DNA from: Gemmatimonadales bacterium | GTDB lineage: Bacteria > Gemmatimonadota > Gemmatimonadetes > Gemmatimonadales > GWC2-71-9 | Assembly (NCBI GenBank): GCA_965249575.1 | Contig: OZ252244.1 | Coordinates: forward strand, 1,935,127 to 1,999,126 | Direction: 5' to 3' | Length of the DNA stretch: 64,000 bases | Shown: positions 1,200-57,688 of the stretch, piece after piece | Numbering within the stretch: position 1 is the first letter of the stretch | Layout of the letters: each line of letters opens with the position of its first letter | Program-made: the position numbers and the translations under genes | Notes under the pieces: generated by a model | Database searches by the model: none | What the model saw: the letters and a program-made list of their open reading frames with translations, nothing else | Told to the model about the DNA's origin: nothing

Positions 1200-2234
1200 T
1201 CACACCCGTGCGGCGCTCCACTCGTGTACCATTTCGACCACTGCTCGCGCCCGATCGGGATCCGTTCCCTGTAGCACGCCATGCCCGAGATTGAAGACGT
1301 GGCCCGGACGTCCCTTGGCTCGCTCCAGAATGTCGTGTACCTGGGCGGTGAGCTCGCCGAGCGGGGCGAACAGCGCGGCAGGGTCGAGGTTGCCCTGAAC
1401 ACCCCGGTCTGGGACCGCCATCCATGCCTGGTCCAATGGAAGCCGCCAATCGACGCCGATGACATCTCCCCCTGCTTCGGCCATGAGGTCCAGCATCGCG
1501 GAGGCGCCGGTGGCAAAGTGAATTAACGGCACGTCCGATGTCGTGGCTCGGGAGATCGCCTTTGCGCTATGCGGCTGGACATACCGCCGGTAATCGCTTC
1601 GAGACAGACAGCCCACCCAGCTGTCGAAGAGTTGCAAGGCCTGCGCTCCCGCTGCTGCCTGGGCGTCGAGAAGGCTGCCGACAGTGGTAGCCAAGTGATC
1701 GAGCAGCCGGTGCCACGTGTCGGGATCGTTGTACATCAGCCGTTTCGTTCTCAGAAAGTCGCGGGTCGGCCCCCCCTCGACGGCGTAGCTGGCCAACGTG
1801 AACGGGGCGCCGGCGAAGCCGATCAATGGCACGCCGTCGTCCAACTCGGCGCGAGTGCGCCGAACCGCCTCGAGGACATGTCCCAGATCGCTTTGTGGGT
1901 CGATCGTCGGAAGGGTCGAGACGTCGGTCGGCGAGCGCACGGGGTTCGTGATCCTCGGTCCCTCACCCGCGGTGAACTCGAGTCCCAGACCGAGTGGCTC
2001 GAAGGGGAGCAAGATGTCGGCGAACAGGATAGCGGCGTCGACTCCCAGTCGCTCCACCGGTTGCAATGCCACCTCGCACGCCAGTTCCGGTCGGTGGCAA
2101 ATCTCGAGGATCGATGCCCGCTTCCGAATGTCCTGGTACTCCGGCAAGTAACGGCCCGCCTGGCGCATGAACCAAACGGGCGTGTGCGAAGCGGGCGCGC
2201 CACGACACGCCGCCAGGAAGGGATCAGCCGACAA
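1200..2234 (-). CDS. hemE: Uroporphyrinogen decarboxylase
   Basis: Signature PVWFMRQAGRYLPEYQ near the N-terminus, with full-length similarity pattern (ILFADILLP, GFAGAPFTLA). The ORF-track start at 2363 overlaps the upstream gene by 140 nt. TTG at 2232-2234 gives about 344 aa and a 10-nt overlap with the hemQ stop. Confidence 0.9.
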   Translation of the reverse strand: MSADPFLAACRGAPASHTPVWFMRQAGRYLPEYQDIRKRASILEICHRPELACEVALQPVERLGVDAAILFADILLPFEPLGLGLEFTAGEGPRITNPVRSPTDVSTLPTIDPQSDLGHVLEAVRRTRAELDDGVPLIGFAGAPFTLASYAVEGGPTRDFLRTKRLMYNDPDTWHRLLDHLATTVGSLLDAQAAAGAQALQLFDSWVGCLSRSDYRRYVQPHSAKAISRATTSDVPLIHFATGASAMLDLMAEAGGDVIGVDWRLPLDQAWMAVPDRGVQGNLDPAALFAPLGELTAQVHDILERAKGRPGHVFNLGHGVLQGTDPDRARAVVEMVHEWSAARV

Positions 2235-3261
2235 GTATCCGGCCTCCTTCGACCTCCACGCGATACGTCTTGATCGGTGTGACCGGCGGCCCGCCGAGGG
2301 GTTTGCCCGATGCGAGCTCGAACTTGCCCTGGTGCCAGGGGCATGTGAGTACCAGTCCGTCACCGTCGACGACGCCTTCGCTCAATGACGCTCGGCCGTG
2401 GGTGCACCGGTCGCTCACGGCATAGAAGCGCCCACCGACGTTGAAGAGCGCTATGGCGTCGCTCCCGAGGTAGATCCGCTTGCTGGACCCGGGAGGGACA
2501 TCGTCGACGTCCGCTACGGGGTAGAGGCCATTGCCACGACCGGCGTCCGCGGCTGCCGGCTTCGGCAGTGCGGCGCCCCCAAGTGAGTCGAGGACCTCGT
2601 ACAGAGACATTTGCACGCAGGTAAATGTCGGCGTGTCCTTGAGCGTGTACGACGACGCCTCGCTCTCCCGCAGCTCCATCACCAAGTCGAGGAACTCGCC
2701 CGGGTCGTCACCTTCGAACGCCACGATGAATTCCTGGTCGTCCAGGCCGAACGAATACGTCGTGTTGAGCCTGATTGATGGGTACTTTCTCCCTATCCGC
2801 ACGTGTTCGTTCATCATTTCCTGGCGGCGCTCCAGGGACGCGGAGTACCACTCCCGCTTCTTGATGAACGGGTACACGAAGAAGTAGCGATTGTCCGCCG
2901 GTCGGGTGACAAGCTGGTCGTGCTTGCCCTTGTGGTCTGGGAACTTGTAAAGCGAGCGCTTGGTCATCGCGAGGTAGCTATAGGGGATCGTCAAATAGCC
3001 GCCGAGGCGTGTCGAGAAGAGCGCGGTCTGGATGTGCTGGAGTGTCTCGACGTCCTCAGTAGCCTGCCACAGGAGGAAGTCCGAGTCCCCCCGAGTCCCG
3101 GCGAGGCTGTACGTGCGGAGCAATAGCTTCGCGTGAAAACTCTTTACCGCATGTGCGAACTGTTCTTTGTGCTCGATCTGCTCCGCGGCCTCGAGTCGCC
3201 GCCACGCAGCATCGAGCTTGTAGAACACATACCGGACAACCTGGCGCTTTTCCTTACTCAT
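2224..3261 (-). CDS. hemQ: Chlorite-dismutase-family coproheme decarboxylase (HemQ/ChdC) fused to a C-terminal Rieske [2Fe-2S] domain
   Basis: Residues 1 to about 235 look like HemQ/Cld family (VRYVFYKLD, FFVYPFIKKREWY, EFIVAFEGDDPGEF). After an Ala/Pro linker, residues about 255-345 carry the Rieske motif CTHGRASL...CPWHQGKF. Position between hemD and hemE. Confidence 0.75.
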   Translation of the reverse strand: MSKEKRQVVRYVFYKLDAAWRRLEAAEQIEHKEQFAHAVKSFHAKLLLRTYSLAGTRGDSDFLLWQATEDVETLQHIQTALFSTRLGGYLTIPYSYLAMTKRSLYKFPDHKGKHDQLVTRPADNRYFFVYPFIKKREWYSASLERRQEMMNEHVRIGRKYPSIRLNTTYSFGLDDQEFIVAFEGDDPGEFLDLVMELRESEASSYTLKDTPTFTCVQMSLYEVLDSLGGAALPKPAAADAGRGNGLYPVADVDDVPPGSSKRIYLGSDAIALFNVGGRFYAVSDRCTHGRASLSEGVVDGDGLVLTCPWHQGKFELASGKPLGGPPVTPIKTYRVEVEGGRILVG

Positions 3262-4024
3262 GTCCTGCTGGTCCTTTAGTCAAATCGGCGAACGCTGCAA
3301 CCAGCGCCGCCAGCAGTCCGTCTTCGGTGTACTCTTCGGCGACTTCTGTCACTTCGAGGCCGTACTCGCGGGCAGTCCGAGCCGTTATCGGTCCGATGCA
3401 GACGATCTTCGTTTTCGGCGGCGGTGGCCCTGCTTCCAGGAACCCTCGGACGGTGGACGAGCTGGTGAACGTGACGGCGTCGACGCCCGACAGGTTCGGC
3501 CGCTCTGTGGCGAGCGAGCGCGTATGATACACGGGGATCTCGTCGACGGTACCCCCTCGTGCCCGCAACCCTTCGGCCAATGCCTGTCGTGCGATGTCCG
3601 CTCTCGGGAGCAAGAACTGCTGGCCTTCAACGTCTCCCAGCCCTGCGAGAATCGCCTCCGCCACGTACTTGCTCGGCACGAGGTCAGGCTCGATCCCGTA
3701 CTTTCGGAGCGCGCTCGCCGTAGCCGGTCCAATTGCCGCGATCCGCGGTCCCTCGATCCCGGGTGTTCTCTGCAAAACCGCGTCAACCCCGTGCTTGCTG
3801 GTGAAAATGACCCAATCATACTCGGGGAGGCGGGCGAGGGCGGCTTCGAGCGGCGCTGAATCGGCCGGCTCGATTCGAATGGCCGGAATGACCACGGGCT
3901 CGGCTCCGAGAGCTTCGAGCCGGGCGGCGAGGCGGCCCGCATCGGGCTCGGGACGCGTGATGACGATCCGGCGGCCGGCCAGGGGATGTCTGGGGTTGGG
4001 GTGGGCTACAGCAGCGTGCTTCAT
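3254..4024 (-). CDS. hemD: Uroporphyrinogen-III synthase
   Basis: 256-aa ORF with RRIVITRPEPDAGRLAARLEALGAEPVVIPAIRIEP and two-lobe HemD-like repeats (DWVIFTSKHGV / VTFTSSSTV). Stop overlaps the hemQ start. Confidence 0.85.
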   Translation of the reverse strand: MKHAAVAHPNPRHPLAGRRIVITRPEPDAGRLAARLEALGAEPVVIPAIRIEPADSAPLEAALARLPEYDWVIFTSKHGVDAVLQRTPGIEGPRIAAIGPATASALRKYGIEPDLVPSKYVAEAILAGLGDVEGQQFLLPRADIARQALAEGLRARGGTVDEIPVYHTRSLATERPNLSGVDAVTFTSSSTVRGFLEAGPPPPKTKIVCIGPITARTAREYGLEVTEVAEEYTEDGLLAALVAAFADLTKGPAGHE

Positions 4025-24113: not shown

Positions 24114-25316
24114 TCACCAACTCACAGGCTTGCGGCGCCCGAATCCCAGCCAGATGTCGAGTCTGAGCATCAGCGCTCGAAGCGGCGTCCCCGCCAACCA
24201 AGGCCCCACTCGGTAGAGCCACCTCGAGTAATCCTTGTTGTATGGACAGACGCGAATACAAATGGAGCAGTCACTGTTCTGCCGTGCCCAGAAGCTGAAG
24301 CACTTCTCGGCGTCGACAGTCCACTTCCGCACACCCTTGAGGTTGGAAACATTGTGGACTTCGTCACTAGGATCGTCGTTGGGGATCGCTTTGGGTGGAC
24401 AGGCCTGCGTGCAGCGCCGGCAGACGGAGCAGAACTGCTTCACGCCGAACGAGATCGGCCGGTCGTGCGACAAGGGCATATCGGTGAAGACCTTGCCCAG
24501 CCGCACGGGACCGAATTCCTTGGTGATCAGCAAGCCGTGCCGCCCGTACTCGCCTAGGCCGGCGCGGATGGCGAAGGGAATGGCTAGCGCGGAGTCGTTC
24601 AGACTCGGCACCGCTAGGTACCCGAGGTTCCGGATGTACTGCGCCAGGGACAGGACGGTGACGACGTCCCTTGAGTAGCCCAAACCGGTGGCCGCCCCGC
24701 TGAGGGCGGATGGAACGGTCCGGACGAGGTCGTAGTCCATGGCCGTCGCGACGACGATCACGTTTTCGAGGCCCGCGGAGACCTCGTTCGGCTTCCCTTG
24801 CTGTGTCTGGGCGCTGTAGCAATGGGTGTAGATCCAGCGGTCGTCATTGTGCGTGATGCCCACCCGGTCCGCACCGCACGCCCTCGCGACTCGCTTGATC
24901 TCCCTAGCCATTGCCCCGGCGGACGGGATGGATCGCTTCTCGTCCGCCCCCTCCCGGAGGACCGAGTACTCGTTGAGGAACCCCTCACGTCTGTCTTCCC
25001 TCTGCTTCAGCTCGGCGAAGATGTCGGGAACGTGCCACGTGGCATTCCGGAAGGAGTAGTCGCGGTGCCCGTAGCCATCCACCTCGCGATAGTGCTTCAG
25101 CGGCTTGCGGTAGGTTTCGAAGAAGATGTCGGTTTTCTTAGAGCGAACCGCAGGATCCCAGAATGCACGACAGAACACATCGTTACGCTGATTGAAGCGC
25201 TCGAACCCGTCGAGAATGTCAAAGTCAGCCTCCCGGTCGAGCTCGACGCGCGGAACGGAACCCAGTAGCTCTCGTCTCGACTGGTCGGTGTCGGGTCGGT
25301 TCACTAGGTCGGCCAT
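24114..25316 (-). CDS. Reductive-dehalogenase-family (RdhA-like) iron-sulfur protein, no functional Tat leader
   Basis: Two Fe-S motifs in RdhA arrangement: CSVCRRCTQACPPKAIP (C-x2-C-x2-C-x3-CP) and CFSFWARQNSDCSICIRVCPYNK (C-x11-C-x2-C-x3-CP). N-terminal FERFNQRNDVFCRAFWD. SRRELLG resembles a Tat motif but no hydrophobic h-region follows. No rdhB-like anchor gene adjacent. Confidence 0.55.
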   Translation of the reverse strand: MADLVNRPDTDQSRRELLGSVPRVELDREADFDILDGFERFNQRNDVFCRAFWDPAVRSKKTDIFFETYRKPLKHYREVDGYGHRDYSFRNATWHVPDIFAELKQREDRREGFLNEYSVLREGADEKRSIPSAGAMAREIKRVARACGADRVGITHNDDRWIYTHCYSAQTQQGKPNEVSAGLENVIVVATAMDYDLVRTVPSALSGAATGLGYSRDVVTVLSLAQYIRNLGYLAVPSLNDSALAIPFAIRAGLGEYGRHGLLITKEFGPVRLGKVFTDMPLSHDRPISFGVKQFCSVCRRCTQACPPKAIPNDDPSDEVHNVSNLKGVRKWTVDAEKCFSFWARQNSDCSICIRVCPYNKDYSRWLYRVGPWLAGTPLRALMLRLDIWLGFGRRKPVSW

Positions 25317-31691: not shown

Positions 31692-32742
31692 TCAAATACC
31701 TGGCCTTTGGTAGCCACCGAGTTGCGTTTCCACGAACCGCGCCACCGCGAGCGCCACGTCGTCGCGGCCGAGCCGTGCGATCACCTGGACACCGATCGGC
31801 AGCCCTTCGGGCGACGTACCAGCCCTCACCACGACCCCGGGCCAGCCGGTCATGTTGTAGGTCACCGTATAACTGAATGCCGGTAGCATGTCGCCTCCCT
31901 CGGCCACCCCGTGTGGGAGCGCTGGGAGCGCGTTCACCGGGCACACGATGACGTCGACATTCTCGAGGAACGACTCCAACACGCTCCGGAACTGGAACCA
32001 GCGCGTGACCAGCACATCCAGCTCGGCGCCCGTCACCGCCTCCATGCTGGTGAGCGACTCGAGGGTGTGCCGAGTGGTCCCAGCGTTTCGCAGCAGTCGG
32101 CTGATCGCAGCTCCTCCATCCCAGAAATAGAGCGGCAACCCGACATCGAGCGTTTGCTCGATCCCGGGCGGACGCTGCTCCGTTACGGCGGCGCCCTCAC
32201 CAGCCAACGCCGTGGCGACAGCCTCGACGGTCAGTACGGTCTCGCGTGTCGGCGTCATGATCCCGTTGTCGGTGTGGTACGAGACCCTGAGCGAGCTCAA
32301 GTCGACGTCCCGGGGGTCGTTCCACGGCAACGGCCAGACACCCGGGTCGATCCAGTCGGGTCCGGCAATCAGCGGCAGAATGAGGCTCAGGTCGTCCACG
32401 GAGCGCGCCATCGGTCCGAGCTGTTGGAACGCATCCTCCGTAGTCACTTCCTATGTCGAAGGGAGATCCCCCGGCGGCGACGATGGCCGCGGCCCCACCG
32501 CTGCTGCCGCCGGTGGTGCGCGTGGGATCGTACGGATTGCTCGTTCGCCCGTATATCAAGTTGCCGGTTTCGAAGGACAGCGTGAGCTCCGGCGTGTTGG
32601 TCTTGCCGAGAAGAATCGCACCCGCGTTACGCAGCCGCTCCACAACCGTCGCGTCCCGCTCCGATGCCTCCCGAAACGGTAGTTGTATAGGCCGTCCAAC
32701 GACCAGCGTATCCAATCGAATCCGGGAACCAACAGATGACAC
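31692..32742 (-). pseudogene. Amidase-signature (GatA-like) amidase remnant: N-terminally truncated, internal deletion plus frameshift
   Basis: ORF 32197..32742 holds ...DATVVERLRNAGAILLGKTNTPE...GGSSGGAAAIVAAGGSPFDIGSDYGG. ORF 31692..32447, in a different frame, continues at ...FQQLGPMARSVDDL... to the C-terminus. About 35-40 aa normally lying between these blocks, and about 70 N-terminal aa, are absent. The 5' end abuts the cytochrome c gene. Confidence 0.75.
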
Positions 32743-33647
32743 TGAAACGTGCGGTGAAATGGGCCGGAGTTGCCCTGACTGCGGTCGTCGTTGTCCTCTT
32801 GCTTTTTGTTGGCGTCCTGCTCATCGGCTACGAGCGTGCAGTGGCCAAGCGCTACGACGTGCCGCCGCCGAGCGTGATTTCCAGCACTGATTCCGCGGTC
32901 GTGGCGCGCGGGAAGCACCTCGCCGAATCGATAGGAGGATGCCTGGACTGTCACGGCCCCGGGCTCGGTGGCAGAGAGGGTGACGACATGGGGCCCGTCG
33001 GTGCCTTCCACGCCCCGAATATCACGCGGGGAGAAGGGGGAGTAGGCGATACATACACCGATGCCGAAATGGCACGGCTGGTCCGACACGGCATAAAGTC
33101 CGATGGCCGAACGGTCCTGTTCATGCCGTCCATGGACTTCAACTGGTGGCCCGATGAGGATCTGACGGCGCTCGTTTCGTACGTGCGCAGTCTGCCTCCT
33201 GTCGACGGGAAGGTGCGCGAGCTGAGAGTTGGGTTGCTGGGCAAGTCGCTGAATCAGCTCGGTGTTTTCCCTTTGGCTGTTGCGGCGGCCATCGACCACA
33301 CGGCCGAGCGGCCTGACGTGCCCGACCCGGAGCCCACGGCGGAATACGGCCGCTTTCTCGCTATGAGCTGTCAGGGGTGTCACGGGGTCGGGTTGAGCGG
33401 TGGGCGCCTTCCCGGCTCGCCGGCTGACCTGCCGACCCCCACCAACCTGACGCGTCATGAGACCGGACTTGCCGGTTGGGGACAGGAGGACTTTGTGAGG
33501 CTCCTCGACACCGGTATCCGACCGAACGGCAGCAGAATCGATCCGTTCATGCCGGTCACGGCGACTCGAAACATGAGTGAGATCGAAAAGTCAGCCCTCT
33601 GGGCGTATCTCCAGAGTCTGGAGCGACGGGAGTTTGGGGGCCGTTGA
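32736..33647 (+). CDS. Membrane-anchored dihaem c-type cytochrome
   Basis: N-terminal TM VALTAVVVVLLLFVGVLLIGY. Two CxxCH motifs (CLDCHG, CQGCHG). Confidence 0.8.
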   Translation: MTLKRAVKWAGVALTAVVVVLLLFVGVLLIGYERAVAKRYDVPPPSVISSTDSAVVARGKHLAESIGGCLDCHGPGLGGREGDDMGPVGAFHAPNITRGEGGVGDTYTDAEMARLVRHGIKSDGRTVLFMPSMDFNWWPDEDLTALVSYVRSLPPVDGKVRELRVGLLGKSLNQLGVFPLAVAAAIDHTAERPDVPDPEPTAEYGRFLAMSCQGCHGVGLSGGRLPGSPADLPTPTNLTRHETGLAGWGQEDFVRLLDTGIRPNGSRIDPFMPVTATRNMSEIEKSALWAYLQSLERREFGGR

Positions 33648-36689: not shown

Positions 36690-37712
36690 TTAGGCCGCAC
36701 CGTCGTCCCACCGGCCGTGAATCACGAAGTCGTCTATTTGGATCTCCTTACCGTAATCTGCGTAATCCCCATCGGTGCGGGCCCTGCGAAACTCTCCCCA
36801 ATTCACGGTCCTGTATCGCGGTCTATCGCCGGCCACCGCTGGGATCGGAGCGCAGTCCGTCTCGTACGCGGGATTGAAAAAGAAGGGAATACTGTACCGA
36901 GGGGTGCCCGTGACCGGCCGGACGCGGTGGAGAGCGGCCCGGTATCTCCCGTTCGACCAGATCTGCATCATGTCCGCCACGTTGATGACCAGCGCGCCCT
37001 CGATCGGCGGGACATCGAGCCAGACGTCATCTGCAAGAATCTGAAGACCGCCGACTTCGTCCTGCAGCAGAATCGTGAGAGCGCCGGCGTCGGTGTGATG
37101 GTGCAGTGCCATCTCGCCGAGCTGCGTGGTCTGTGCCCTCTGGTTCTCCTCCACCGGATCGGCGAGTGGATAGTAGTTGAGGCGAACAAAACTCGTGTGG
37201 ACCGGTATGAAATACCGGTGCAGCGCTTTCGGCCCGACACCGAGCCCCTCGCACAGAGCCGCCAGGAGCACGAGCCCTAGCTCTTCGCACGCTTGAAAGT
37301 ACCCAAGCATGGTCGGCTTGAAGAGGGGAAGCGGGGCGGGCCACTGGTTCGAGCCGTCGACCGCCGCTCGATTGTCTGGATGCTCCTCGGCCAGCCGGCG
37401 GTCACGAGCTTGAGCGAAATCGAAAACCTCTTTGAGATCTCGCTTGTTCTTGGTGAGCTCGCGATCGAAGTAGCCCCTCGGGTTTTCCTTGGTGCGGGAT
37501 ACGGCGAGCTTGGCGGCCCGAGGGAGTTCGAAGAAGCTGCGCGTTTGATTCCACACGTCTTCGACCAGGGAATCCGGCAATCCGTGATTCACGACCTGAA
37601 AGAACCCATACGCCTCGGACGCGCGTCCGATCGCCTGGTGAGGGCTCGCGCGTGGGGTGGAAAGCGGGGCGTCACGGAGGGCCGCGATGTCGATGATCGG
37701 AATGCTTTTCAA
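36690..37712 (-). CDS. 2-oxoglutarate/Fe(II)-dependent oxygenase (isopenicillin-N-synthase-like)
   Basis: MKSIPIIDIAAL (DIOX_N-like), the H-x-D triad in HHHTDAGALTILLQD, and the distal His in RYRAALHRV. Confidence 0.8.
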   Translation of the reverse strand: MKSIPIIDIAALRDAPLSTPRASPHQAIGRASEAYGFFQVVNHGLPDSLVEDVWNQTRSFFELPRAAKLAVSRTKENPRGYFDRELTKNKRDLKEVFDFAQARDRRLAEEHPDNRAAVDGSNQWPAPLPLFKPTMLGYFQACEELGLVLLAALCEGLGVGPKALHRYFIPVHTSFVRLNYYPLADPVEENQRAQTTQLGEMALHHHTDAGALTILLQDEVGGLQILADDVWLDVPPIEGALVINVADMMQIWSNGRYRAALHRVRPVTGTPRYSIPFFFNPAYETDCAPIPAVAGDRPRYRTVNWGEFRRARTDGDYADYGKEIQIDDFVIHGRWDDGAA

Positions 37713-37917
37713 GCTACCTCACGAATCGACTGTGGGTGCACGGATTCTCTAGCAGTATGTACGTATGGCGCCGAGAGCGCGAGGCGAGGGCATCAATGTT
37801 CGTGCCATTTTTGGGGCTCCGCCGCGCGAGGTGGCGAGGCCGCGGGCTGCTGCCCATTTTGTTAGGGACCGCTTGGGAACCGCCGGCATTCACCGCTCCG
37901 GAGGCCAATCGATCGTC

Positions 37918-40900
37918 ATGCCCGAGACTTTGACCGAAAAGCGAAACGAGCGGGGACAACCCCGCTCTCCGGAATCGGATGTCCAGTGGAAGCAAGCCGT
38001 GTGCGGCATCTGCCCGGCGGGATGTTGGGTGGAGGTTGGCCTTCAGAACGACGAGATAGTCGATATCCGGCAGGATACGGGTCATCCGCTCGGGATGATC
38101 TGCCGACGCGGCCGGCACGCGCCCGAGATCGTCCACTCCAAGCACCGCCTCAAGCATCCGATGAAACGCGTTGGTCTCAAGGGATCGCACGATTTCGAGA
38201 AGATCTCATGGGACGAGGCCTACGAGCACATTGTCGAGCGGCTGGAAACCATCAAGAGTGAGTCGGGTCCCGAAGCCGTCGCTATCTACACCGGCCGCGG
38301 AGCCTTTGAGCTCTCGCTGTGTGACATGTTCCAGCCGGCGGGGGTCGAAGTTTCTTCGGCCTCGAATGTGCTGTTCCCGTTCGGCTCCCCGAACACGATG
38401 GGTGTGGGCGCGTTGTGCTACGTCTCATTCGCCATGATCGCGCCGCACGTGACCCTGGGCCGCATGCTCGTCAACATGTTCACGGATATCGAGAACGCGG
38501 AGCTTCTGGTGGTGTGGGGCGCCAATCCCGCGACCGACTCTCCGCCGCTCGACATGCATCGTCTCGAGGCGGCGGCGAAACGGGGTGCCGAGATCTTCGT
38601 CATCGATCCACGCCGAACCGAGACCGCAACGCGCACGAACGGGCAGTGGATCCCGCTTCGTCCGGGGACGGATGCTGCGCTGGCGCTGAGCATGCTCGAG
38701 GTCATGATCGATGAGGAGCTGTATGACGAGCCGTTCGCCGAACAATGGTGTCACGGCTTTGGTGAGCTGCAGAACTACGTACAGCACTTCCGGCCGGAAG
38801 TGGCCGAGGGCATTACGGGGGTGCCTGCCGATACGATCCGGACGCTGGCGCGTCGAATCTGCCGTGCCACGGGTGCGTGCCCCGTCATGTACACGGGACT
38901 CGAGTATTCTAACAGCGGAATCCAGTCCATCAGAGCGGTACTCACATTGTTTGCGCTTGCCGGCCAGCTCGATGTTCCCGGAGGCATCGGTCTCTCGATG
39001 CGGGGAACACACTTCCCCATCAACCGCTCCAGCCATCAGAGCAACCCCGATTTGAATCTCGCCGTCGCCCGTCAAAAGTTTCCCCTCTACAGCCACTACC
39101 GAGGGGAGTCACACGCCTCCGGGCTTGTGAACTCCGTGCTCGAGGGAGATCCGTACCGTATTCGTGGGCTCATAGTGCACGGAGCGTCGCTGCTCACGTC
39201 GTGGCCGCAGACGGCCGTGTGGCGGGACGTGCTGTCGAAACTCGACTTTCTCGTGTGCATCGATCGCCAGCTCACCGCCGATTCCGCCTATGCGGATATC
39301 GTATTGCCGGCCACTACGATGTTCGAGATCGATTCCTACATGGTGTACGGGCCGATATTCCGCCTGCGCGAGAAGCTGATCGAGCCGGTTGGCGAAGCCC
39401 GCAACGATTACCTGATCATGGCGGAGTTGGCGCGGCGTCTCGGGTACGGCGATCTGTACCCGCAGACCGAAGAGGCAATGATCCGCAACGCCCTGGACGG
39501 TTCGGGCTATTCGCTCGAGGACGTGAAGAAAGCCGGCGGATGGGTGAAGCTGCAAACACCGATGACGCAGTACAAGAAGTGGGAAAAGGGCGGGCTCCGG
39601 GAGGACGGGCAACCCGGCTTCGACACGCCGAGCGGGAAGTTCGAGATTTGGTCCTCGACGCTCGAGGATTACGGGTACGAGCCACTGCCCAAATACGTGG
39701 AGCCCACCGAAGGCCCGTTGGGGAGCCCACAGGTCGCCGAGGCCTTCCCGTTGGTGTTCAACTCAGGCGCTCGGCCACACACCGATTTTCGATCGCAGCA
39801 CCACGGCATCGAGGGGCTGACAAAGGACAACCCGGAGCCCACCGTTGAGTTGAACACGCGCGATGCCGCCGAGCGCGGTATTACCGCGGGCGATCTCGTC
39901 GAGGTGCGCACACCGAGGGGAGCGGTCTCGTTTCGGGCGAGAGTGACTGACGACATCGTACAGGGCGCCGTGGAGTGCAACATGGGTGGCGGGACGCCGG
40001 TGGGGCCGAAAGCGTGGCGGGAATGGAACGTCAATGAGCTAACCGACCTCTCGAATCGCGACGAGATCTCGGGCTTCCCGGTGTACAAGGCGTTGCTGTG
40101 TGACGTCGTGCGCAAGGAGGCCGGCACGCCGCAGGCCCGACGCGCTTCAGCCAAGGCCGCCGAGGCGTGTGGTCCCGTACCGCTCCAGACGGCGAGCCCG
40201 GGCAAGAAACCGCGCCGCCGGATCTACCTCGACAACAACTCGACGACGCAAGTCGCTGACGAGGTACGGGAGGCAATGCAGCCCTTCCTCGATGCGACGC
40301 ATGGGAACCCCTCGAGCATCCACTCGGTTGGGCGGGAAGCCCGGGAGGGAGTGGAGAAGGCGCGCCGGCAGGTCGCGGAGCTCATGAACTGCCGTCCCCG
40401 TCGAATCCTCTTTACCGGTGGTGGCTCCGAGTCGGACAACCTGGCAATCAAGGGGGTTGCCTTCGCGGGCCGCGAAAAGGGACGGCACATCGTGACGAGT
40501 GCCATAGAGCATCCCGCGGTGCTTCAAACCTGCAGGTTCCTCGAGCGGATGGGCTACGAGGTTACGTACCTCGACGTTGATCGGCAGGGGCTCATTAGTG
40601 CCGAGCAACTGGATGAGGCCATTCGAGACGACACGATCCTAGTATCGCTGATGATGGCAAATAACGAGGTCGGAACCATTCTTCCGATCAAGGAGCTCTG
40701 TACGACTGCACGCGCCAAACAGGTCCCTTTCCACACCGACGCGGTCCAGGCCGTCGGGAAAGTCCGGGTCGACGTGCAAGAGCTGGACGTGGATCTGCTG
40801 AGTCTGTCGGGCCACAAGTTCCACGCACCGAAGGGTATCGGCGCGCTGTATATGAGAAAGGGAGTCGAAATCGAGCCGCTGATACACGGCGGAAAGCAGG

Positions 40901-41373
40901 AAAGCGGCCTGCGAGCGGGCACGGAGAACGTTCCGGCCATCGTTGGGTTGGGGATGGCGGCGGAGTTGGCCGGCCGTTCTCTGCGAGAGTCCGAAGGAAT
41001 GGGGAAACTGCGGGACAAGCTCGAAGCGGGCATCCGTGCGCTCATCCCTGCGGCTGAGTTAAACGGACACCCAGACGACCGGCTGCCCAACACGCTGAAC
41101 ATGACGCTTCCCGGATTGCGCGGGGAATCACTGGTCGTGGCCCTGGACCAGCACGGCATCTCGCTCTCCTCGGGATCGGCCTGCAAGTCCGGCTCACCGG
41201 ATCCCACGCACGTTTTGATGGCGATGAGCAGGACGGCGGAGGAGGCGCATTGCGCCGTGCGTTTCTCGCTGTCGCACGGTACGACTGCGAGCGACATCGA
41301 CGAAACGCTATCGATGGTCGGGCGCTTGCTCCAAGAGATGGAAACGACGGTTCGATTCCTACCGTGCAAGTAA
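37918..41373 (+). CDS. Fusion protein: cytoplasmic molybdopterin (Mo/W-bisPGD) oxidoreductase + NifS/IscS-type cysteine desulfurase (1151 aa)
   Basis: ATG 37918 (MPETLTEKRN). [4Fe-4S] motif VCGICPAGCW...GMIC. MopB core and C-terminal barrel ending FPVYKALLCDVVRKE (40119). A 34-aa linker AGTPQARRASAKAAEACGPVPLQTASPGKKPRRR (40120-40221) has no in-frame start codon. Then IYLDNNSTT..., PLP Lys in SLSGHKF and active Cys in SSGSACKSG. TAA at 41371. Confidence 0.8.
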   Translation: MPETLTEKRNERGQPRSPESDVQWKQAVCGICPAGCWVEVGLQNDEIVDIRQDTGHPLGMICRRGRHAPEIVHSKHRLKHPMKRVGLKGSHDFEKISWDEAYEHIVERLETIKSESGPEAVAIYTGRGAFELSLCDMFQPAGVEVSSASNVLFPFGSPNTMGVGALCYVSFAMIAPHVTLGRMLVNMFTDIENAELLVVWGANPATDSPPLDMHRLEAAAKRGAEIFVIDPRRTETATRTNGQWIPLRPGTDAALALSMLEVMIDEELYDEPFAEQWCHGFGELQNYVQHFRPEVAEGITGVPADTIRTLARRICRATGACPVMYTGLEYSNSGIQSIRAVLTLFALAGQLDVPGGIGLSMRGTHFPINRSSHQSNPDLNLAVARQKFPLYSHYRGESHASGLVNSVLEGDPYRIRGLIVHGASLLTSWPQTAVWRDVLSKLDFLVCIDRQLTADSAYADIVLPATTMFEIDSYMVYGPIFRLREKLIEPVGEARNDYLIMAELARRLGYGDLYPQTEEAMIRNALDGSGYSLEDVKKAGGWVKLQTPMTQYKKWEKGGLREDGQPGFDTPSGKFEIWSSTLEDYGYEPLPKYVEPTEGPLGSPQVAEAFPLVFNSGARPHTDFRSQHHGIEGLTKDNPEPTVELNTRDAAERGITAGDLVEVRTPRGAVSFRARVTDDIVQGAVECNMGGGTPVGPKAWREWNVNELTDLSNRDEISGFPVYKALLCDVVRKEAGTPQARRASAKAAEACGPVPLQTASPGKKPRRRIYLDNNSTTQVADEVREAMQPFLDATHGNPSSIHSVGREAREGVEKARRQVAELMNCRPRRILFTGGGSESDNLAIKGVAFAGREKGRHIVTSAIEHPAVLQTCRFLERMGYEVTYLDVDRQGLISAEQLDEAIRDDTILVSLMMANNEVGTILPIKELCTTARAKQVPFHTDAVQAVGKVRVDVQELDVDLLSLSGHKFHAPKGIGALYMRKGVEIEPLIHGGKQESGLRAGTENVPAIVGLGMAAELAGRSLRESEGMGKLRDKLEAGIRALIPAAELNGHPDDRLPNTLNMTLPGLRGESLVVALDQHGISLSSGSACKSGSPDPTHVLMAMSRTAEEAHCAVRFSLSHGTTASDIDETLSMVGRLLQEMETTVRFLPCK

Positions 41374-41509: not shown

Positions 41510-43003
41510 ATGAGACGTACGGTTGTCACAGATCGGTCGATGCTTCGGGCTCTCGTGCCCTCTCTTTCGGGGAGCGCACGGTCCGGTGCGCCCGCGTTTC
41601 GGATAGCTGTCATCGCCGTGGTCGCGATCGGGCTCGCCGGATGCGGTGACGAGATGCCGACGGGCAACACGGCGATCACCCCACCGGCGCCCCCATTGCC
41701 GGTCGTTCAATCCATTTCCGTGGATACGGCAGGTGCTTTGGTGCGCAGCCTCGAGTTGACCCTCGACATTCCCGCCGCCGTCGAGGTGGAGTACTGGACC
41801 GATCAGTCTCCAAAGCTCCAGATCGCGAGTGTCCGGGATACCTCACATGAATTGACACTCGGGCAGCTCGTGCCGGATGCGACATATGAGTTGGTGGCGT
41901 GGGCCATCGGTTCGGACAGGAGCCGCGCGGAAATCGCTCGGGACAGTTTTGTTACCGACACCCTGCCCAGCGACCTCGCTCAGGTGACGTTCGTCTCGAG
42001 CGGCACCTCCACCGCCCCGCTGGTCATGCTCGAGGTGGGGGTCTTCCCAAACGGTTATCTCGGGTTTGTAGCAGTGAATTCCGTTGGCGCGGTCGTGTCG
42101 TATCACTCCACTAGCGGCTTCCCCTGGGGCTGGGACAGGAGGGCAAACGGGAACTTCCTCCTGCTCGATACGGACGGCGGTTTGAACGAAGTGAGCCCGA
42201 ACGGGGACGTGATTGCCAGCCGGCCCCACCTGGGAGGCAAGGTCATCCATCACGACGTGCTCGTGACTCCCGGTAACACCGTTCTCTTCATGGTCCGCGA
42301 CACGCGCGAAGTGGCGGACACGTTTTACACGGGGGAGACGATCTTCGAGTGGGTTCCGGAAACCGATGCGCTGGAGGAGCGCTGGACGGCGTTTGATTTC
42401 CTATCCCCGACGGTCGACGTTGGGCCTCGGACGCGAAACAGCGACTGGCTCCACTCCAACTCCCTGTCGTACAGCCCAAGCGGGGACATCCTCATGTCCC
42501 TGATGTTCCTCGACCAGATCATCTCGATCGCGCCCGACTTCCAGTCGCTCAACTGGAGACTGGGCGGGGTCGGGAACACTTTCACACTGGGAGAAGGCGC
42601 GGTTTTCTCGGGGCAGCACACGGCAAAGGAGTTGGATGGTGGTCGTGTCCTCATGTTTGACAATCGCCACGTTCCAGTCGACAGCATGTTGTACTCGCGA
42701 GCGCTCGAGCTGGAGCTCAATCTGACGGATAGTACCGCAACCAAGGTATGGGAGTTTCGGGCTCCCAACGACAACTATTCGAAGATCATCAGCTCCGCGC
42801 GACGGCTCGCTAATGGCAACACCATGGTCACGTTCGGAGCTGGCGATGGCCTCGTGGGGTCCGTGGGCCCAATCGAGGTCTACGAGGTGACACGTGGGGG
42901 CGACATCGTGTGGAATCTCGTGATCGAGGGAGCGGGATCGGTATACCGCGCGACACCGTTCGGGCACCTGTTTGGGGAAGTGCCCGTCCCCGACGACGAG
43001 TAA
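41510..43003 (+). CDS. Arylsulfotransferase (ASST)-like beta-propeller lipoprotein
   Basis: Lipobox-like VVAIGLAGC. IHHDVLVTPGNTVLF..., GETIFEWVPE..., WTAFDFL...NSDWLHSNSLSYSPSGDILMSLMFLDQIISI...LNWRLGG...SGQHTAKELDGGRVLMFDNRH match the ASST/Arylsulfotran_2 pattern. Confidence 0.65.
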   Translation: MRRTVVTDRSMLRALVPSLSGSARSGAPAFRIAVIAVVAIGLAGCGDEMPTGNTAITPPAPPLPVVQSISVDTAGALVRSLELTLDIPAAVEVEYWTDQSPKLQIASVRDTSHELTLGQLVPDATYELVAWAIGSDRSRAEIARDSFVTDTLPSDLAQVTFVSSGTSTAPLVMLEVGVFPNGYLGFVAVNSVGAVVSYHSTSGFPWGWDRRANGNFLLLDTDGGLNEVSPNGDVIASRPHLGGKVIHHDVLVTPGNTVLFMVRDTREVADTFYTGETIFEWVPETDALEERWTAFDFLSPTVDVGPRTRNSDWLHSNSLSYSPSGDILMSLMFLDQIISIAPDFQSLNWRLGGVGNTFTLGEGAVFSGQHTAKELDGGRVLMFDNRHVPVDSMLYSRALELELNLTDSTATKVWEFRAPNDNYSKIISSARRLANGNTMVTFGAGDGLVGSVGPIEVYEVTRGGDIVWNLVIEGAGSVYRATPFGHLFGEVPVPDDE

Positions 43004-45820: not shown

Positions 45821-46946
45821 TTGGATAACCGAACGGCTGGCCGGATTCGGGTCACCTATGTCCTGAAATGCGCGGCTGGGGAAGATCCTCTTGCCAAGGC
45901 CAGGGACATCGCGTTCGAACAAACCGTCGAGCTCCCACCGGAGTGCGTCGAATCCGATATCGTCGACCGAGTCGTTGGCCGGGTGGAGGAGATCGAGCCG
46001 GTCGGCGGCCGTCGGTGGCGTGCCACGCTCACGTATTCAGCCGACGCCGTGGGACGGGACGTTCTCCAGCTATTCAACCTTTTGTTCGGGAACATCTCAC
46101 TCAAGAATGGCGTCCTGGTTACGCGGCTCGAGCTCCCGCCATCCGTGCTGCGATACTTTCTTGGGCCCCGACACGGGGTCGAGGGCCTCCGCTCGCTTTG
46201 CGCGGTGTCGTCCCGTCGACCGCTTTCCTGTGTCGCGGTCAAGCCGCTGGGATCCTCGGCGGCAGAACTGGCCGACCGGTGCGGCGGGTTAGCTCTTGCC
46301 GGGATCGACATCGTCAAAGACGATCATGGAATCGCCGACCAACCGCCTGCCCCCTTTTGAGGAGCGTGTATCTCGCTGCCAGGAAGCGGTTTCGACCGCG
46401 AACGACCGTACGGGCGGCGCGACCCTGTATCTCCCCAACATCACGGGCGCTACCGAACTGCTCGAGCGGGCGGAGTTCGTTCGGTCGCTCGGGTGTAAAG
46501 GGGTCCTCGTCAGTCCGCTCTTGGTTGGCTTGGAAGCCGTTCGCCGGCTATCCGAACGATCCGGGTTGGCGATCATGGCCCACCCATCGGTTGCCGGTGC
46601 GTTCTTTCGCCCGGACCACGGAGTCGCTCCGGAAGTGCTCCTCGGACGGCTCTTTCGGATGGTCGGAAGCGACGCGGTGATTTTCCCGAATTCCCGCGGC
46701 AGATTCCCTTTCTCCCAGCGCACGTGTAGGGCGATCAGCCAGCGTCTCTTGGAGCCCCTCGGATCCATGCGTCCCGCCTTTCCCGTTCCGGGTGGAGGGA
46801 TGGAGGTTGATTCTCTCCCACGCTGGATGAGGCTGTACGGTACTGACGCGATCTTCCTCATTGGGAGCAGTCTGTATTCAGCCCCCGATCTGGAGCGCGC
46901 GGCTCGTGGATTCGCGGGACAAATTCGGCGGTTCGACCACCAGTAG
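45821..46946 (+). pseudogene. RuBisCO-like protein (form IV-like large-subunit homologue) split by a 1-nt frameshift at about 46350-46358
   Basis: ORF 45821..46360 has ...LFNLLFGNISL..., VAVKPLGSS (KPKLG equivalent) and GIDIVKDDHGIADQPPAPF*. ORF 46296..46946 continues with ...PPFEERVSRCQEAV...LYLPNITG...IMAHPSVAGAF...FPVPGGGM...IFLIGSSLYS. Removing one base from ccccctttt joins them. Confidence 0.75.
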
Positions 46947-47043
46947 GAGCAGGGTCCGCGAAGAACCTCGGGTGGGGACTGCCTGTTACGAAGTACAGGA
47001 GGGGAATCGGATCGACACATCCCTGCTCGAGGAGCGAGGCGCA

Positions 47044-47919
47044 GTGGCACCTGCACGCCGGACCCGAATTGCCCAGCACTGGTTGCTCTTAGCGGCGACA
47101 CTGATATTGCTCTGCGGCTCGGTGAACGCGCAAGAAAGGCGGGTGGGGTTGAGAGGCGTCGTAGTGGATTCGGTCAGCGGAGATCCAGTTGCCGGGGCAA
47201 CTCTGTCGCTCAACGGTCGGCCGGCCTTGACCGAAACCCGGCGCGATGGATCGTTCGTTTTCACCGCTGTCTCCGCCCCCGGCGAGCGAATCAGCGTCAG
47301 GAAAATCGGTTACGAGCCCATGGAGGCCCCGGTGCAAGCGCCGTCGAGGGATGGTTGGATCGACGTCGGGACGATCCACATCTCGCCGATCTCCGCCGCG
47401 CTGCCGGCTGTGGTAATCAGAGGTGGAACGCGCGTGCGAGGCGAGATGGCGGGGTTCACCGGGCGTGCCGAAAGGGGTATTGGGACGTTCTTGTCGAGGG
47501 GCGACATCGAGAGGCATCGTTTTCGCCGGAGCTCCGAGATCCTCCGCACGATCCCAGGGCTGATCGTCGAATGCCGCACGGGGCAGTGTCTCGTGGGGTT
47601 CAGCCGAAACCGGCGGCCGGGCGTGCTGGACGGAACCCGCACCCGGTTCGAGACCGACGGGGGGCAGGGCTTGGGTGGGGATGCCCCGAACGAAGCGTTG
47701 TCCAGGGTGCCCAGCGGATCTGCCCCGGGGCGGATCTGCCCGGTTGCGTACTACGTGGACGGCATGCGATTCGAGGGAAACCTCGGAATTGACGAGTTTC
47801 CCCCGGAGGAGATCGAGGCGATCGAGCTGCACAAAGGGCCGGCGACCACGCCAATGAGATTTCGGTCACGCGGCTCCACGTGTGGCACAATTGTGATCTG
47901 GACACGCGCTCCGAACTGA
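47044..47919 (+). CDS. CarboxypepD_reg domain + TonB-plug-like domain outer-membrane protein (no barrel)
   Basis: GTG 47044. Signal WLLLAATLILLCGSVNAQ. GVVVDSVSGDPVAGATLSLNGRPALTETRRDGSFVF. Plug-like SEILRTIPGLIV...YYVDGMRFEG...EEIEAIELHKGPA. Confidence 0.6.
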   Translation: MAPARRTRIAQHWLLLAATLILLCGSVNAQERRVGLRGVVVDSVSGDPVAGATLSLNGRPALTETRRDGSFVFTAVSAPGERISVRKIGYEPMEAPVQAPSRDGWIDVGTIHISPISAALPAVVIRGGTRVRGEMAGFTGRAERGIGTFLSRGDIERHRFRRSSEILRTIPGLIVECRTGQCLVGFSRNRRPGVLDGTRTRFETDGGQGLGGDAPNEALSRVPSGSAPGRICPVAYYVDGMRFEGNLGIDEFPPEEIEAIELHKGPATTPMRFRSRGSTCGTIVIWTRAPN

Positions 47920-56289: not shown

Positions 56290-57688
56290 ATGGTGACAGA
56301 CGAACGAGACATGACACCGGGTGGGGAACAAGCGAGCGCGCTCATACAGCGATATCCGCTCGCCGAGGCGATACCGCCCGAGAAGCTCGAAGCGGAGATC
56401 GCGCAGATCGACCGGCTAGAAGCGGCGCCGTTCGGCAGGAGGGTCTCTGGCTACCTCCGGCTGACCGGACCGGGCTTCATGGGAGCGGCGCTCACCTTGG
56501 GAGCGGGCACGCTCGCAGGGGCGATGCTGTCGGGCGCCCGGTTTGGATATCGGACGCTTTGGATGGTGTGGCTCTCGGTTGGGCTGGGGATGTTCATGCT
56601 GGCGGCCTCGGCCCGCTTTACGAGCAAGGGCGGGTTCCGCGTCATACCTACCCAGAACCGGCTTCACGGGCGCCTGGTCGGATCGGTGCTCACCGGTATC
56701 GTCGGATGCGCCTTCGTCGGAATCGTGTTCAGCTTCGGTCAGTACTCCCTCTCCACGCATCTCATCGAATCCCTGGCGGCGCTGAGCGGATTCGAGTTCC
56801 CCCGTACGATGAACTGGGTTCTCGTCTTCGCTCTCACGGCCTCCTTGACCCTGCTCTATGGCAGGAAGGACGGGCGTGGTATCGGTCGTGTCGAATCGTT
56901 CATGAAGGTTTGCGTCCTCATCAATGTTGCTTGGTTTCGGCGCGACGCTGCTCGTCGTCGGAGTGCAGTGGAACGAGTTGCTCCGGGGGATCTTCGTCCC
57001 ATGGTTGCCTCGAGGGTTCGAAGGTATCACGCTGTTCGTGGCGTCCTCGACCGCGGCGATCGGAGTGATGGACTGGGTGTTTTTTCACTATGCCGGACTC
57101 GCGCGGGGCTGGGGACCGAAACACGAAGGGCTGGCGCGGTATGACATGTTCGTTGGTTTCTTTCTGCCCTTCGTTCTCATCAACTGCATGGTCATCGCCG
57201 TCTTCTCGGAGACTCTGTATGGTAAGGCTCATCCCGAGACGGCCGCCGATCTGGCGCGGTCGCTCCAGCCCCTCCTCGGCGCGTATTGGTCGCAGGTCTT
57301 GTTTTACCTCGGATTTCTTGCGGTTCCGGTCAGTACGATCGTAGGCATGAGCATCGTGACGGCGATTGCCATTCACGAAGCGTTCGGCTGGACTCCGGAC
57401 ACGACGTCGCTCAGGTGGAAGGTCACTGCCCTTCTACCACAGATTGGATTCCTCGGTGTTTGGCATCCACGGCCCGTCTGGTTGATAATCATCATCGGCG
57501 CGTTCCTGTCGCTGTCGCAGAACTTCGTTGGGTGGAGCTTTTATCTCCTCGCGAACAACAAGAAGCTGCTGGGTGAAGACCGCTGCAAGAGCCGGTTCTG
57601 GAACGGCGGTATGCTCCTCGACGTGACGCTCATCAACTGCGTCAGCATCATCTACGTTTTGAGCTTGTTGAACCTGTGGCCGGAGTAA
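56290..57688 (+). pseudogene. NRAMP-like membrane transporter split by a 1-nt insertion near 56923
   Basis: ORF 56290..57144 has ...LTGPGFMGAALTLGAGTLAGAMLSGARFGYRTLWMVW...FMKVCVLI. ORF 56924..57688 continues with MLLGFGATLLVVGV... to the C-terminus. Deleting one A in atcaatg joins them. LGAGT replaces the NRAMP DPGN motif. Confidence 0.65.

Follow-up and report, generated by a model that had tools for sequence, protein, structure and literature searches.

A fused bis-pterin enzyme and cysteine desulfurase gene in a Gemmatimonadales genome probably encodes a metallopterin-dependent ergothioneine synthase

Organization of the locus

The window, i.e., the whole stretch of 64,000 nucleotides that was analysed, contains a long gene flanked by genes coding for a 2OG-Fe(II) oxygenase and an arylsulfotransferase-like protein (Table 1). 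A first-pass annotation had described this gene as one unbroken frame with neither a twin-arginine leader nor an in-frame TGA; its translation agrees, giving 1151 stop-free amino acids in which neither feature is seen. The same frame holds a longer alternative ORF of 1202 aa starting at ATG 37765. We favour ATG 37918 as the probable start, as homologue lengths (1131-1153 aa, 1108-1171 aa at the widest) give the longer form no support.

Table 1. Features of the fusion gene and its flanks (window coordinates). CaMES, metallopterin-dependent ergothioneine synthase (MES) of Caldithrix abyssi.
Feature	Position	Strand	Remarks
2OG-Fe(II) oxygenase	36690-37712	-	flanks fusion
GGAGG, likely ribosome-binding site	37900..37904	+	13 nt before ATG 37918, read from sequence
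Predicted MES gene	37918..41373	+	1151 codons + TAA; uninterrupted frame, four Pfam domains, end-to-end alignment with four active MES
Fe4S4-binding domain (Molybdop_Fe4S4), aa 23-74	37984..38139	+	Pfam PF04879
Fe4S4 cysteines Cys29, Cys32, Cys36, Cys62	38002, 38011, 38023, 38101	+	CaMES Cys14/17/21/48
Molybdopterin (bis-MGD) domain, aa 77-506	38146..39435	+	Pfam PF00384
Metal-ligand codon Cys167 (GALCYV)	38416-38418	+	aligns with W-ligand Cys of 2E7Z and CaMES Cys153
Molybdopterin dinucleotide-binding barrel (Molydop_binding), aa 618-725	39769..40092	+	Pfam PF01568
Ala/Pro/Arg-rich interdomain linker, 34 aa (735-768)	40120..40221	+	in-frame start/stop absent
Class-V PLP cysteine desulfurase domain (Aminotran_5), aa 769-1128	40222..41301	+	Pfam PF00266, NifS TIGR03402, IscS/NifS structures
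PLP Lys967	40816-40818	+	CaMES Lys952
Persulfide Cys1089	41182-41184	+	CaMES Cys1074
Conserved Cys1112	41251-41253	+	CaMES Cys1097
Penultimate-residue Cys1150 (RFLPCK-stop), family-specific sulfur-relay cysteine	41365..41367	+	CaMES Cys1135
Arylsulfotransferase-like gene	41510-43003	+	flanks fusion

Four Pfam domains, all scoring above their curated cut-offs, follow one another along the ORF. The profile scan agrees with the earlier reading of an Fe4S4/bis-pterin module of the DMSO-reductase type joined to a full NifS/IscS-type desulfurase, and the motifs VCGICPAGCW, GMIC, IYLDNNSTT, SLSGHKF and SSGSACKSG listed at that time were all found in the translation; the spacing of the cluster motif, given as x26, had to be corrected (C29-x2-C32-x3-C36-x25-C62). 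Among 124 aligned sequences, these four cysteines are 97-100% conserved and the metal-ligand Cys167 is invariably kept (124/124). The PF00266 match spans profile positions 1-369 of 371, while the C-terminal part scores 512-516 bits with NifS TIGR03402, slightly below the equivalog cut-off of 530.75, and up to 374 bits with solved IscS/NifS desulfurase structures. The hallmarks of NifS/IscS proteins are all present in this module, namely the class-V fold match, the PLP lysine (SGHK) and the flexible-loop persulfide cysteine (SSGSAC). Lys967, Cys1089 and Cys1112 are 99-100% conserved in the 124 sequences, all of which also retain Cys1150. Further family-conserved cysteines are Cys135 and Cys728; Cys751, located in the linker, is clade-specific. 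A reading of the 34 linker codons bears out the reported lack of ATG, GTG and TTG, and stops are absent as well.

Recurrence of the fusion

A base missing from the linker could have joined two adjacent genes, as the first-pass annotation had cautioned, in which case an error of assembly or sequencing would have created the fusion. The window does hold several genes that are split or truncated (amidase, Nramp, TonB-receptor plug), a sign that assembly errors or pseudogenes are present. However, the same four domains are found on one protein in at least 120 clusters defined at 90% identity and originating from many independent assemblies; these proteins are 74-79% identical to the window protein, the best relative reaching 78-79%. 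With 38 species-level genomes carrying it, the fusion does recur in relatives. Across 120 homologues the linker is variable in sequence and constant in length, the spacing between ALLC and RIYLD being 47-48 aa in the clade of the window protein, and identity to homologues, followed along the ORF, neither collapses locally within domains nor shows a frameshift signature. Furthermore, the desulfurase domain starts directly after a linker devoid of start codons, and fusions of this kind have been expressed from synthetic genes and are functionally obligatory (PMC9516567). Because the fusion recurs in many independent assemblies with a constant linker length, we regard it as genuine; an artefact is effectively refuted already, its probability being negligible.

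Relationship to metallopterin-dependent ergothioneine synthases

Although the first-pass annotation took this architecture for uncharacterised, it is that of MES, an enzyme family described in 2022 on the basis of in-vivo activity, mutagenesis and isotope-exchange data (Beliaeva and Seebeck, JACS Au 2022, PMC9516567). MES moves sulfur from cysteine onto trimethylhistidine, yielding the antioxidant ergothioneine, and four such enzymes (CaMES, hvMES, EaMES and AbMES) make ergothioneine in E. coli (PMC9516567). The window protein shares their length and domain order, i.e., an Fe4S4 and bis-MGD module of about 720 aa, a linker and a desulfurase of about 385 aa, with no signal peptide. Full-length BLASTP revealed identities of at least 66% with hvMES (1152 columns), 58% with CaMES, 55% with EaMES and 54% with AbMES, which are lower bounds since the supplement sequence text was machine-read (alignments of about 1140-1156 columns). 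CGICPAGCW is the same in CaMES, hvMES and AbMES, and the residues used as a criterion in Table S1 of the MES paper (Cys153, Lys952, Cys1074, Cys1097 and Cys1135 of CaMES) correspond to Cys167, Lys967, Cys1089, Cys1112 and Cys1150. That table includes bacterium BMS3Abin03 along with Gemmatimonadetes, Acidobacteria and Dehalococcoidia (PMC9516567); the BMS3Abin03 protein (L013) is 72% identical to ours. Of the positions invariant among 15 homologues linked to an EgtD-type histidine methyltransferase gene, 415/421 are retained, including 283/284 in the pterin module.

The window protein, intact and full-length, is closely homologous to MES and has all its defining residues. On this comparative evidence the gene very probably encodes an MES, for which we infer the substrate from homologues. 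Unlike the assayed enzymes, it sits in a separate Gemmatimonadota-like subclade and its sequence is new.

The nearest solved relative of the N-terminal module is the tungsten acetylene hydratase of Syntrophotalea acetylenica (2E7Z, 231 bits, aa 25-673 aligned), followed by PsrA (2VPW); the MES paper likewise reports such structural relatives (PMC9516567). These similarities, together with partial NCBIfam matches to Fdh-alpha (294 bits), PhsA (253) and DmsA (254) and with the established theme of Mo-cofactor sulfuration by desulfurases (discussed in PMC9516567), would fit an ordinary redox bis-pterin enzyme or an acetylene hydratase in which the desulfurase installs a sulfido ligand once, at maturation. 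Yet the scores do not come near the curated cut-offs (666 for Fdh-alpha, 694 for PhsA, about 777-778 bits for DmsA), a twin-arginine leader is missing, and genes for electron-transfer partners, be they PsrB/PsrC-type, ferredoxin-type, membrane-anchor or other, do not adjoin the fusion at the window locus or at the homologous loci checked. A polysulfide or persulfide reductase, considered from the PsrA similarity, was rejected for want of a TAT leader, partner subunits and above-threshold family scores. Acetylene hydratase resembles the N-terminal module in being cytoplasmic, in its single Fe4S4 cluster and in its metal-ligand cysteine, but it has no desulfurase domain and catalyses a non-redox hydration instead of a sulfur transfer. 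It was dropped as a candidate function: its catalytic Asp13, in the motif C-x2-C-D, is replaced by Pro33 (C-G-I-C-P), a proline in 121/124 family members. In the alignment with it, the segment of Cys135 is gapped. Finally, the pterin module of CaMES K952A, whose desulfurase is dead, is still active in sulfur exchange, implying that the desulfurase serves turnover and not maturation (PMC9516567). A conventional redox enzyme or hydratase is consequently very improbable, and MES remains the preferred assignment.

Genomic context and the sulfur acceptor

In 16 of the 38 species-level genomes, and likewise at locus L002, the fusion has a gene for an EgtD-type histidine methyltransferase at a distance of 18 bp to 1.5 kb. 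Unlike these relatives, the window harbours no EgtD/EanA-type methyltransferase gene in its 64 kb (tblastn, two EgtD-type queries), and among about 50 of its long ORFs scanned with Pfam there were neither Moco-biosynthesis nor ergothioneine genes. The six Gemmatimonadota loci closest to the window protein likewise show no EgtD-type gene in their vicinity (6/6). Such a pattern could mean that this subclade has kept the sulfur relay of MES while using another acceptor than trimethylhistidine, either a different heterocycle or some other metabolite; the MES authors do raise the speculation that uncharacterised Mo enzymes may commonly carry out oxidative sulfurization of other heterocycles (PMC9516567). 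The almost complete retention of the pterin-module positions invariant in EgtD-linked homologues nevertheless argues against a different acceptor, as do the identities of 75-76% to the EgtD-linked L002 and L007 proteins and of at least 66% to the assayed hvMES, and EgtD-linked and unlinked members are intermixed in the neighbour-joining tree. Only 55 of about 80 genomes encode the methyltransferase together with the fusion (PMC9516567), so its absence beside the fusion is not unusual. Another acceptor is therefore unlikely, although less so than a redox function; we infer that the window protein would use the same substrate as the assayed MES, with trimethylhistidine probably supplied by a methyltransferase encoded elsewhere in the genome, or by uptake.

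The flanking oxygenase and arylsulfotransferase-like genes were dropped as putative partners, being unrelated to ergothioneine and found beside the fusion at none of 85 related loci (tblastn). Also set aside was a link to EgtB, suggested by FGE-sulfatase (EgtB-like domain) genes that L001 and L003 carry no more than 4-5 kb away from the fusion, as these are short (218-353 aa), non-adjacent and non-recurrent. Like the lack of a local methyltransferase and of ergothioneine-related neighbours, a further point weighs against the MES assignment: O2-dependent enzymes are encoded in the window, whereas the hosts of MES were described as strictly anaerobic (PMC9516567).

Proposed mechanism

If the window protein operates as an MES, its C-terminal PLP domain would draw sulfur from L-cysteine to form a persulfide on Cys1089, which would be relayed within the same chain, via the penultimate Cys1150, to a Mo or W bis-pterin centre bound by Cys167 beside the Fe4S4 cluster. 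The resulting metal-sulfido species would then transfer sulfur onto the imidazole C2 of hercynine (N-alpha-trimethylhistidine), so that ergothioneine forms independently of O2, and the reduced metal would be re-sulfurated for the next turnover. This scheme follows the published biochemistry: the isolated C-terminal module of MES has desulfurase activity, the metal-ligand mutant C153S of CaMES is inactive, C1135S lowers ergothioneine 2000-fold, and the cysteine, lysine, cysteine and cysteine equivalent to residues 167, 967, 1089 and 1150 are essential (PMC9516567). Sulfur transfer in MES is obligatorily intramolecular, a Mo/W=S species has been proposed, and the pterin site supports a reversible exchange of sulfur between trimethylhistidine and ergothioneine (PMC9516567). 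The chemical mechanism is a proposal because full-length MES was never purified (PMC9516567) and no full-length structure was found in the PDB copy searched; its authors call the Mo(VI)=S electrophile chemistry tentative (PMC9516567), and we extend it to the window protein just as tentatively.

The first-pass annotation had guessed at an in-cis sulfuration of the metal centre, which matches the published intramolecular transfer; according to the MES work (PMC9516567), the sulfur does not stay on the metal but passes to trimethylhistidine in each turnover. The same delivery to imidazole C2 speaks against its two other suggestions, i.e., sulfur supply for the maturation of a formate-dehydrogenase-like enzyme, by analogy with FdhD/IscS, and an enzyme working on persulfide or polysulfide sulfur. 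The eukaryotic Moco sulfurases ABA3/MOCOS and the bacterial IscS-FdhD and NifS-XdhC systems resemble MES in using a NifS-like persulfide to place a sulfido ligand on the molybdenum cofactor. In these systems, however, the cofactor is sulfurated once, prior to insertion into another enzyme, and the partner domain is a Moco carrier and not a DMSO-reductase-family enzyme, while the metal of MES is loaded with sulfur anew in each turnover and that sulfur exits in the product. Conversely, the rhodanese-type anaerobic EanB and the O2-dependent sulfoxide synthase EgtB catalyse the same step as MES, forming the C-S bond on trimethylhistidine, and share with it an EgtD-family partner, but their folds, cofactors and sulfur donors (polysulfide for EanB; cysteine or gamma-glutamylcysteine plus O2 for EgtB) are unrelated.

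Because the region codes for O2-dependent enzymes and lacks an EgtD gene of its own, MES may not be limited to strict anaerobes, and the enzyme of this Gemmatimonadota-like lineage may use imported hercynine or another heterocycle; jointly with this, Cys135, Cys728 and Cys751 may add further steps to the persulfide relay, for which two cysteines were mapped in 2022 (PMC9516567). We regard this combined extension as doubtful, with a low probability of holding as a whole.

Significance

What seemed to be a Rosetta-stone fusion corresponds to a published enzyme class. This allows an annotation of the gene as ergothioneine synthase in place of the public-database names of its relatives, "cysteine desulfurase NifS" or "aminotransferase class V". 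Full-length MES has been neither purified nor solved, and well-behaved mesophilic homologues such as the window protein could help structural work. With thousands of database matches and members in Gemmatimonadota, Acidobacteriota, Dehalococcoidia, cable bacteria, Actinomycetota and Planctomycetota, the MES family is far larger and taxonomically wider than the approximately 55-80 genomes of 2022.

Open reading frame and domain architecture

As described in the first-pass annotation, a single frame without stop runs on the forward strand from ATG 37918 to TAA 41371-41373, and translation gives a product of 1151 aa. The four Pfam families which that annotation proposed to scan for were all found, well over their curated cut-offs. 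Its quoted motifs were likewise all present, save that 25 residues, not 26, separate the third cluster cysteine from the fourth (C29, C32, C36, C62). The C-terminal part matches the NifS profile TIGR03402 (512-516 bits, 373 of 379 profile positions) and solved IscS/NifS structures (up to 374 bits). The linker (40120-40221), previously noted to lack a start, contains neither start nor stop in any of its 34 codons. A mechanical ORF list offers an upstream ATG at 37765 (1202 aa), and one ENA gene call (P0001) likewise uses the longer upstream start. ATG 37918 is the better start because homologues measure 1108-1171 aa, alignment to them opens around residue 14-25, and a GGAGG lies 5' of it at 37900-37904.

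Reality and distribution of the fusion

Whether the fusion recurs in other genomes, as the first-pass annotation had asked, was answered by searching a 5.8-billion-protein collection. The best 120 of 6532 matches are each a distinct cluster at 90% identity and share 74-79% identity with the window protein at 96-100% coverage; all 120 combine PF00384, PF01568 and PF00266 within 1108-1171 aa. They originate from NCBI, JGI, ENA and Logan assemblies, with Gemmatimonadota, Calditrichaeota, Deferribacteres/KSB1, Methylomirabilia, Acidiferrobacterales and Alphaproteobacteria MAGs among the named sources. When one genome per GTDB species was scanned, the fusion appeared in 38 species-level genomes, including Acidobacteriota, Dehalococcoidia, Chromatiales, Candidatus Electronema, Actinomycetota and Phycisphaerae. 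In a 124-sequence alignment cut into 30-aa blocks, the window protein and its relatives share an identity of 0.54-0.95 inside the domains, with a drop only in the first 30 residues and the linker (0.52-0.53); the ALLC-to-RIYLD spacing is constant (47-48 residues) in the clade of the window protein. An assembly frameshift or lost stop as the source of the fusion is excluded by this independent recurrence, identity profile and constant linker length, and the fusion is real. When the tblastn match of one homologue, in a Calditrichia MAG (L032, 1573-4974), is translated directly, 5 internal stops appear, which are probably due to frameshifts in that assembly or to inexact match boundaries.

The fusion belongs to the metallopterin-dependent ergothioneine synthase family

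The first-pass annotation considered this architecture uncharacterised, which is wrong: Beliaeva and Seebeck (PMC9516567) described it as metallopterin-dependent ergothioneine synthase (MES), with residues 1-718 sharing 27% identity with their relative acetylene hydratase and 747-1136 forming a cysteine desulfurase. BLASTP aligned the window protein end to end, in single alignments, with the four enzymes assayed there: at least 66% identity with hvMES (1152 columns), 58% with CaMES (1140), 55% with EaMES (1156) and 54% with AbMES (1150), all lower bounds since the supplementary sequences were machine-read with some errors. All MES-defining positions are 97-100% conserved among 124 family members. 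The window protein is an ordinary member of this already known family.

Features of the window protein and of genes in the window. Domains are Pfam matches well over the curated cut-off; residue equivalences with CaMES (Caldithrix abyssi) are from the multiple alignment.
Feature	Position	Strand	CaMES residue or remark
Molybdop_Fe4S4	aa 23-74	+	
Molybdopterin (PF00384)	aa 77-506	+	
Molydop_binding (PF01568)	aa 618-725	+	
Aminotran_5 (PF00266)	aa 769-1128	+	
Fe4S4 cluster	Cys29/32/36/62		Cys14/17/21/48
Metal ligand	Cys167		Cys153
PLP lysine	Lys967		Lys952
Persulfide cysteine	Cys1089		Cys1074
Conserved cysteine	Cys1112		Cys1097
Penultimate relay cysteine	Cys1150 (...RFLPCK)		Cys1135 (...RFIPCR)
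HemY-like amine oxidase	20-1090	-	flavin oxidase
HemE	1203-2363		
Chlorite dismutase-Rieske ORF	2227-3261	-	
HemD	3257-4024		
4Fe-4S dicluster protein	24117-25316	-	
Amidase	31695-32447	-	
Cytochrome c, cbb3-type domain	32736-33647	+	
2OG-Fe(II) oxygenase	36690-37712	-	divergent neighbour of MES
Arylsulfotransferase (ASST)-family protein (PF05935/PF14269)	41510-43003	+	136 bp downstream of MES, same strand
TonB-receptor fragment	46861-47916	+	
Nramp	56290-57685	+	

According to PMC9516567, all four enzymes convert trimethylhistidine into ergothioneine in E. coli, and the C-terminal module alone is an active desulfurase. In CaMES, production was abolished by C153S and, 2000-fold, by K952A, C1074S and C1135S, while C1097S merely halved it. 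Complementary dead variants (n=2) did not rescue activity when co-expressed; sulfur transfer is therefore intramolecular, and the in-cis sulfuration of the metal centre proposed in the first-pass annotation comes close to this picture. Its analogy with FdhD and MOCOS overlooks that the sulfur ends in a small-molecule product. 34S exchange between ergothioneine and trimethylhistidine persists in K952A, hence the pterin site forms the C-S bond and the desulfurase is required at each turnover. The sulfur path from cysteine to ergothioneine, its essential residues, its intramolecular course and the reversibility at the pterin site are thus demonstrated in homologues.

Since full-length identity is 58-66% and every defining residue is conserved, we infer that the window protein performs the same reaction. 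Adopting the mechanism those authors proposed, persulfide would pass from Cys1089 to Cys1150 and on to the metal; the imidazole of trimethylhistidine would then attack an electrophilic Mo(VI)/W(VI)=S, and ergothioneine would leave behind Mo(IV), to be re-sulfurated. Three further cysteines are possible extra persulfide-relay stations: Cys135 (38320-38322, LSLCDMF; 89% conserved and shared by all four enzymes assayed, in a segment gapped against acetylene hydratase), Cys728 (40099-40101, ALLCDVV; 94% conserved) and linker Cys751 (40168-40170, ACG; 69% conserved in the clade of the window protein, absent from the assayed MES). The PDB copy searched held no MES structure.

The closest solved relatives of the N-terminal module are tungsten acetylene hydratase (2E7Z, 231 bits, aa 25-673) and, second, Thermus polysulfide reductase PsrA (2VPW). 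Acetylene hydratase identity is ruled out because its catalytic Asp, beside the second cluster cysteine, is replaced by Pro33 (Pro in 121 of 124 members). No NCBIfam equivalog cut-off was reached (Fdh-alpha, 294 vs 666 bits; PhsA, 253 vs 694; DmsA, 254 vs 778).

Methyltransferase linkage and sulfur acceptor

An EgtD/EanA-family gene (PF10017, Methyltransf_33), of the histidine methyltransferases giving trimethylhistidine, lies immediately downstream of the fusion at one locus (L002). With this protein and M. smegmatis EgtD as queries, tblastn located an EgtD-type gene near the fusion (distance 18 bp to 1.5 kb) in 16 of 38 species-level loci, as well as at L002, and none within the 64-kb window. 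Such partial linkage, and the absence in the window, fit the co-encoding in 55 of ~80 genomes reported in PMC9516567. Members without a linked EgtD, including the window protein, might instead use an acceptor other than trimethylhistidine. Against this, of the 421 alignment columns that do not vary across 15 EgtD-linked homologues, the window protein retains 415 (in the pterin module, 283 of 284), and a neighbour-joining tree intermixes linked and unlinked members, the window protein clustering with the Gemmatimonadota loci L006, L023, L034 and L048. We therefore regard a different acceptor as very improbable.

Genomic context and oxygen

Gene context around the fusion is not conserved among relatives. 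Neither the oxygenase nor the arylsulfotransferase-like gene stands beside MES in 85 other loci; the latter is probably unrelated to MES, which is effectively a stand-alone gene in the window. Functions that depend on O2 or are of aerobic type are encoded nearby, namely the 2OG-Fe(II) oxygenase, the HemY-type flavin oxidase and a cytochrome c that carries a cbb3-type domain. The O2-dependent enzymes of the region sit awkwardly with PMC9516567, which calls MES hosts strictly or "exclusively anaerobic", yet includes Gemmatimonas MAGs in its Table S1.

Within a haem-biosynthesis cluster (HemY, HemE, HemD), another candidate fusion, or lost stop, joins a HemQ-like chlorite-dismutase-family domain (aa 32-217) to a C-terminal Rieske 2Fe-2S domain (aa 247-333). 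The product of 24117-25316, which carries a 4Fe-4S dicluster domain and weakly matches the reductive-dehalogenase family, could be an enzyme resembling epoxyqueuosine reductase. Three genes are apparently split or truncated: the amidase covers no more of its profile than positions 185-442 of 445, Nramp no more than 127-354 of 357 (an upstream ORF overlaps it in a different frame), and the TonB receptor is a plug alone, without barrel. These genes point to pseudogenes or to sequencing frameshifts in this assembly; the 124-sequence alignment finds the MES ORF free of such defects.

Extent of the MES family

Table S1 of PMC9516567, which required conservation of Cys153, Lys952, Cys1074, Cys1097 and Cys1135, already includes Gemmatimonadetes, Acidobacteria, Dehalococcoidia and "bacterium BMS3Abin03", whose genome (contig L013) encodes a protein 72% identical to ours. 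Relatives are still annotated in public databases as "cysteine desulfurase NifS", "IscS subfamily" or "aminotransferase class V", and the MES family is far broader now than in 2022, when it was described.
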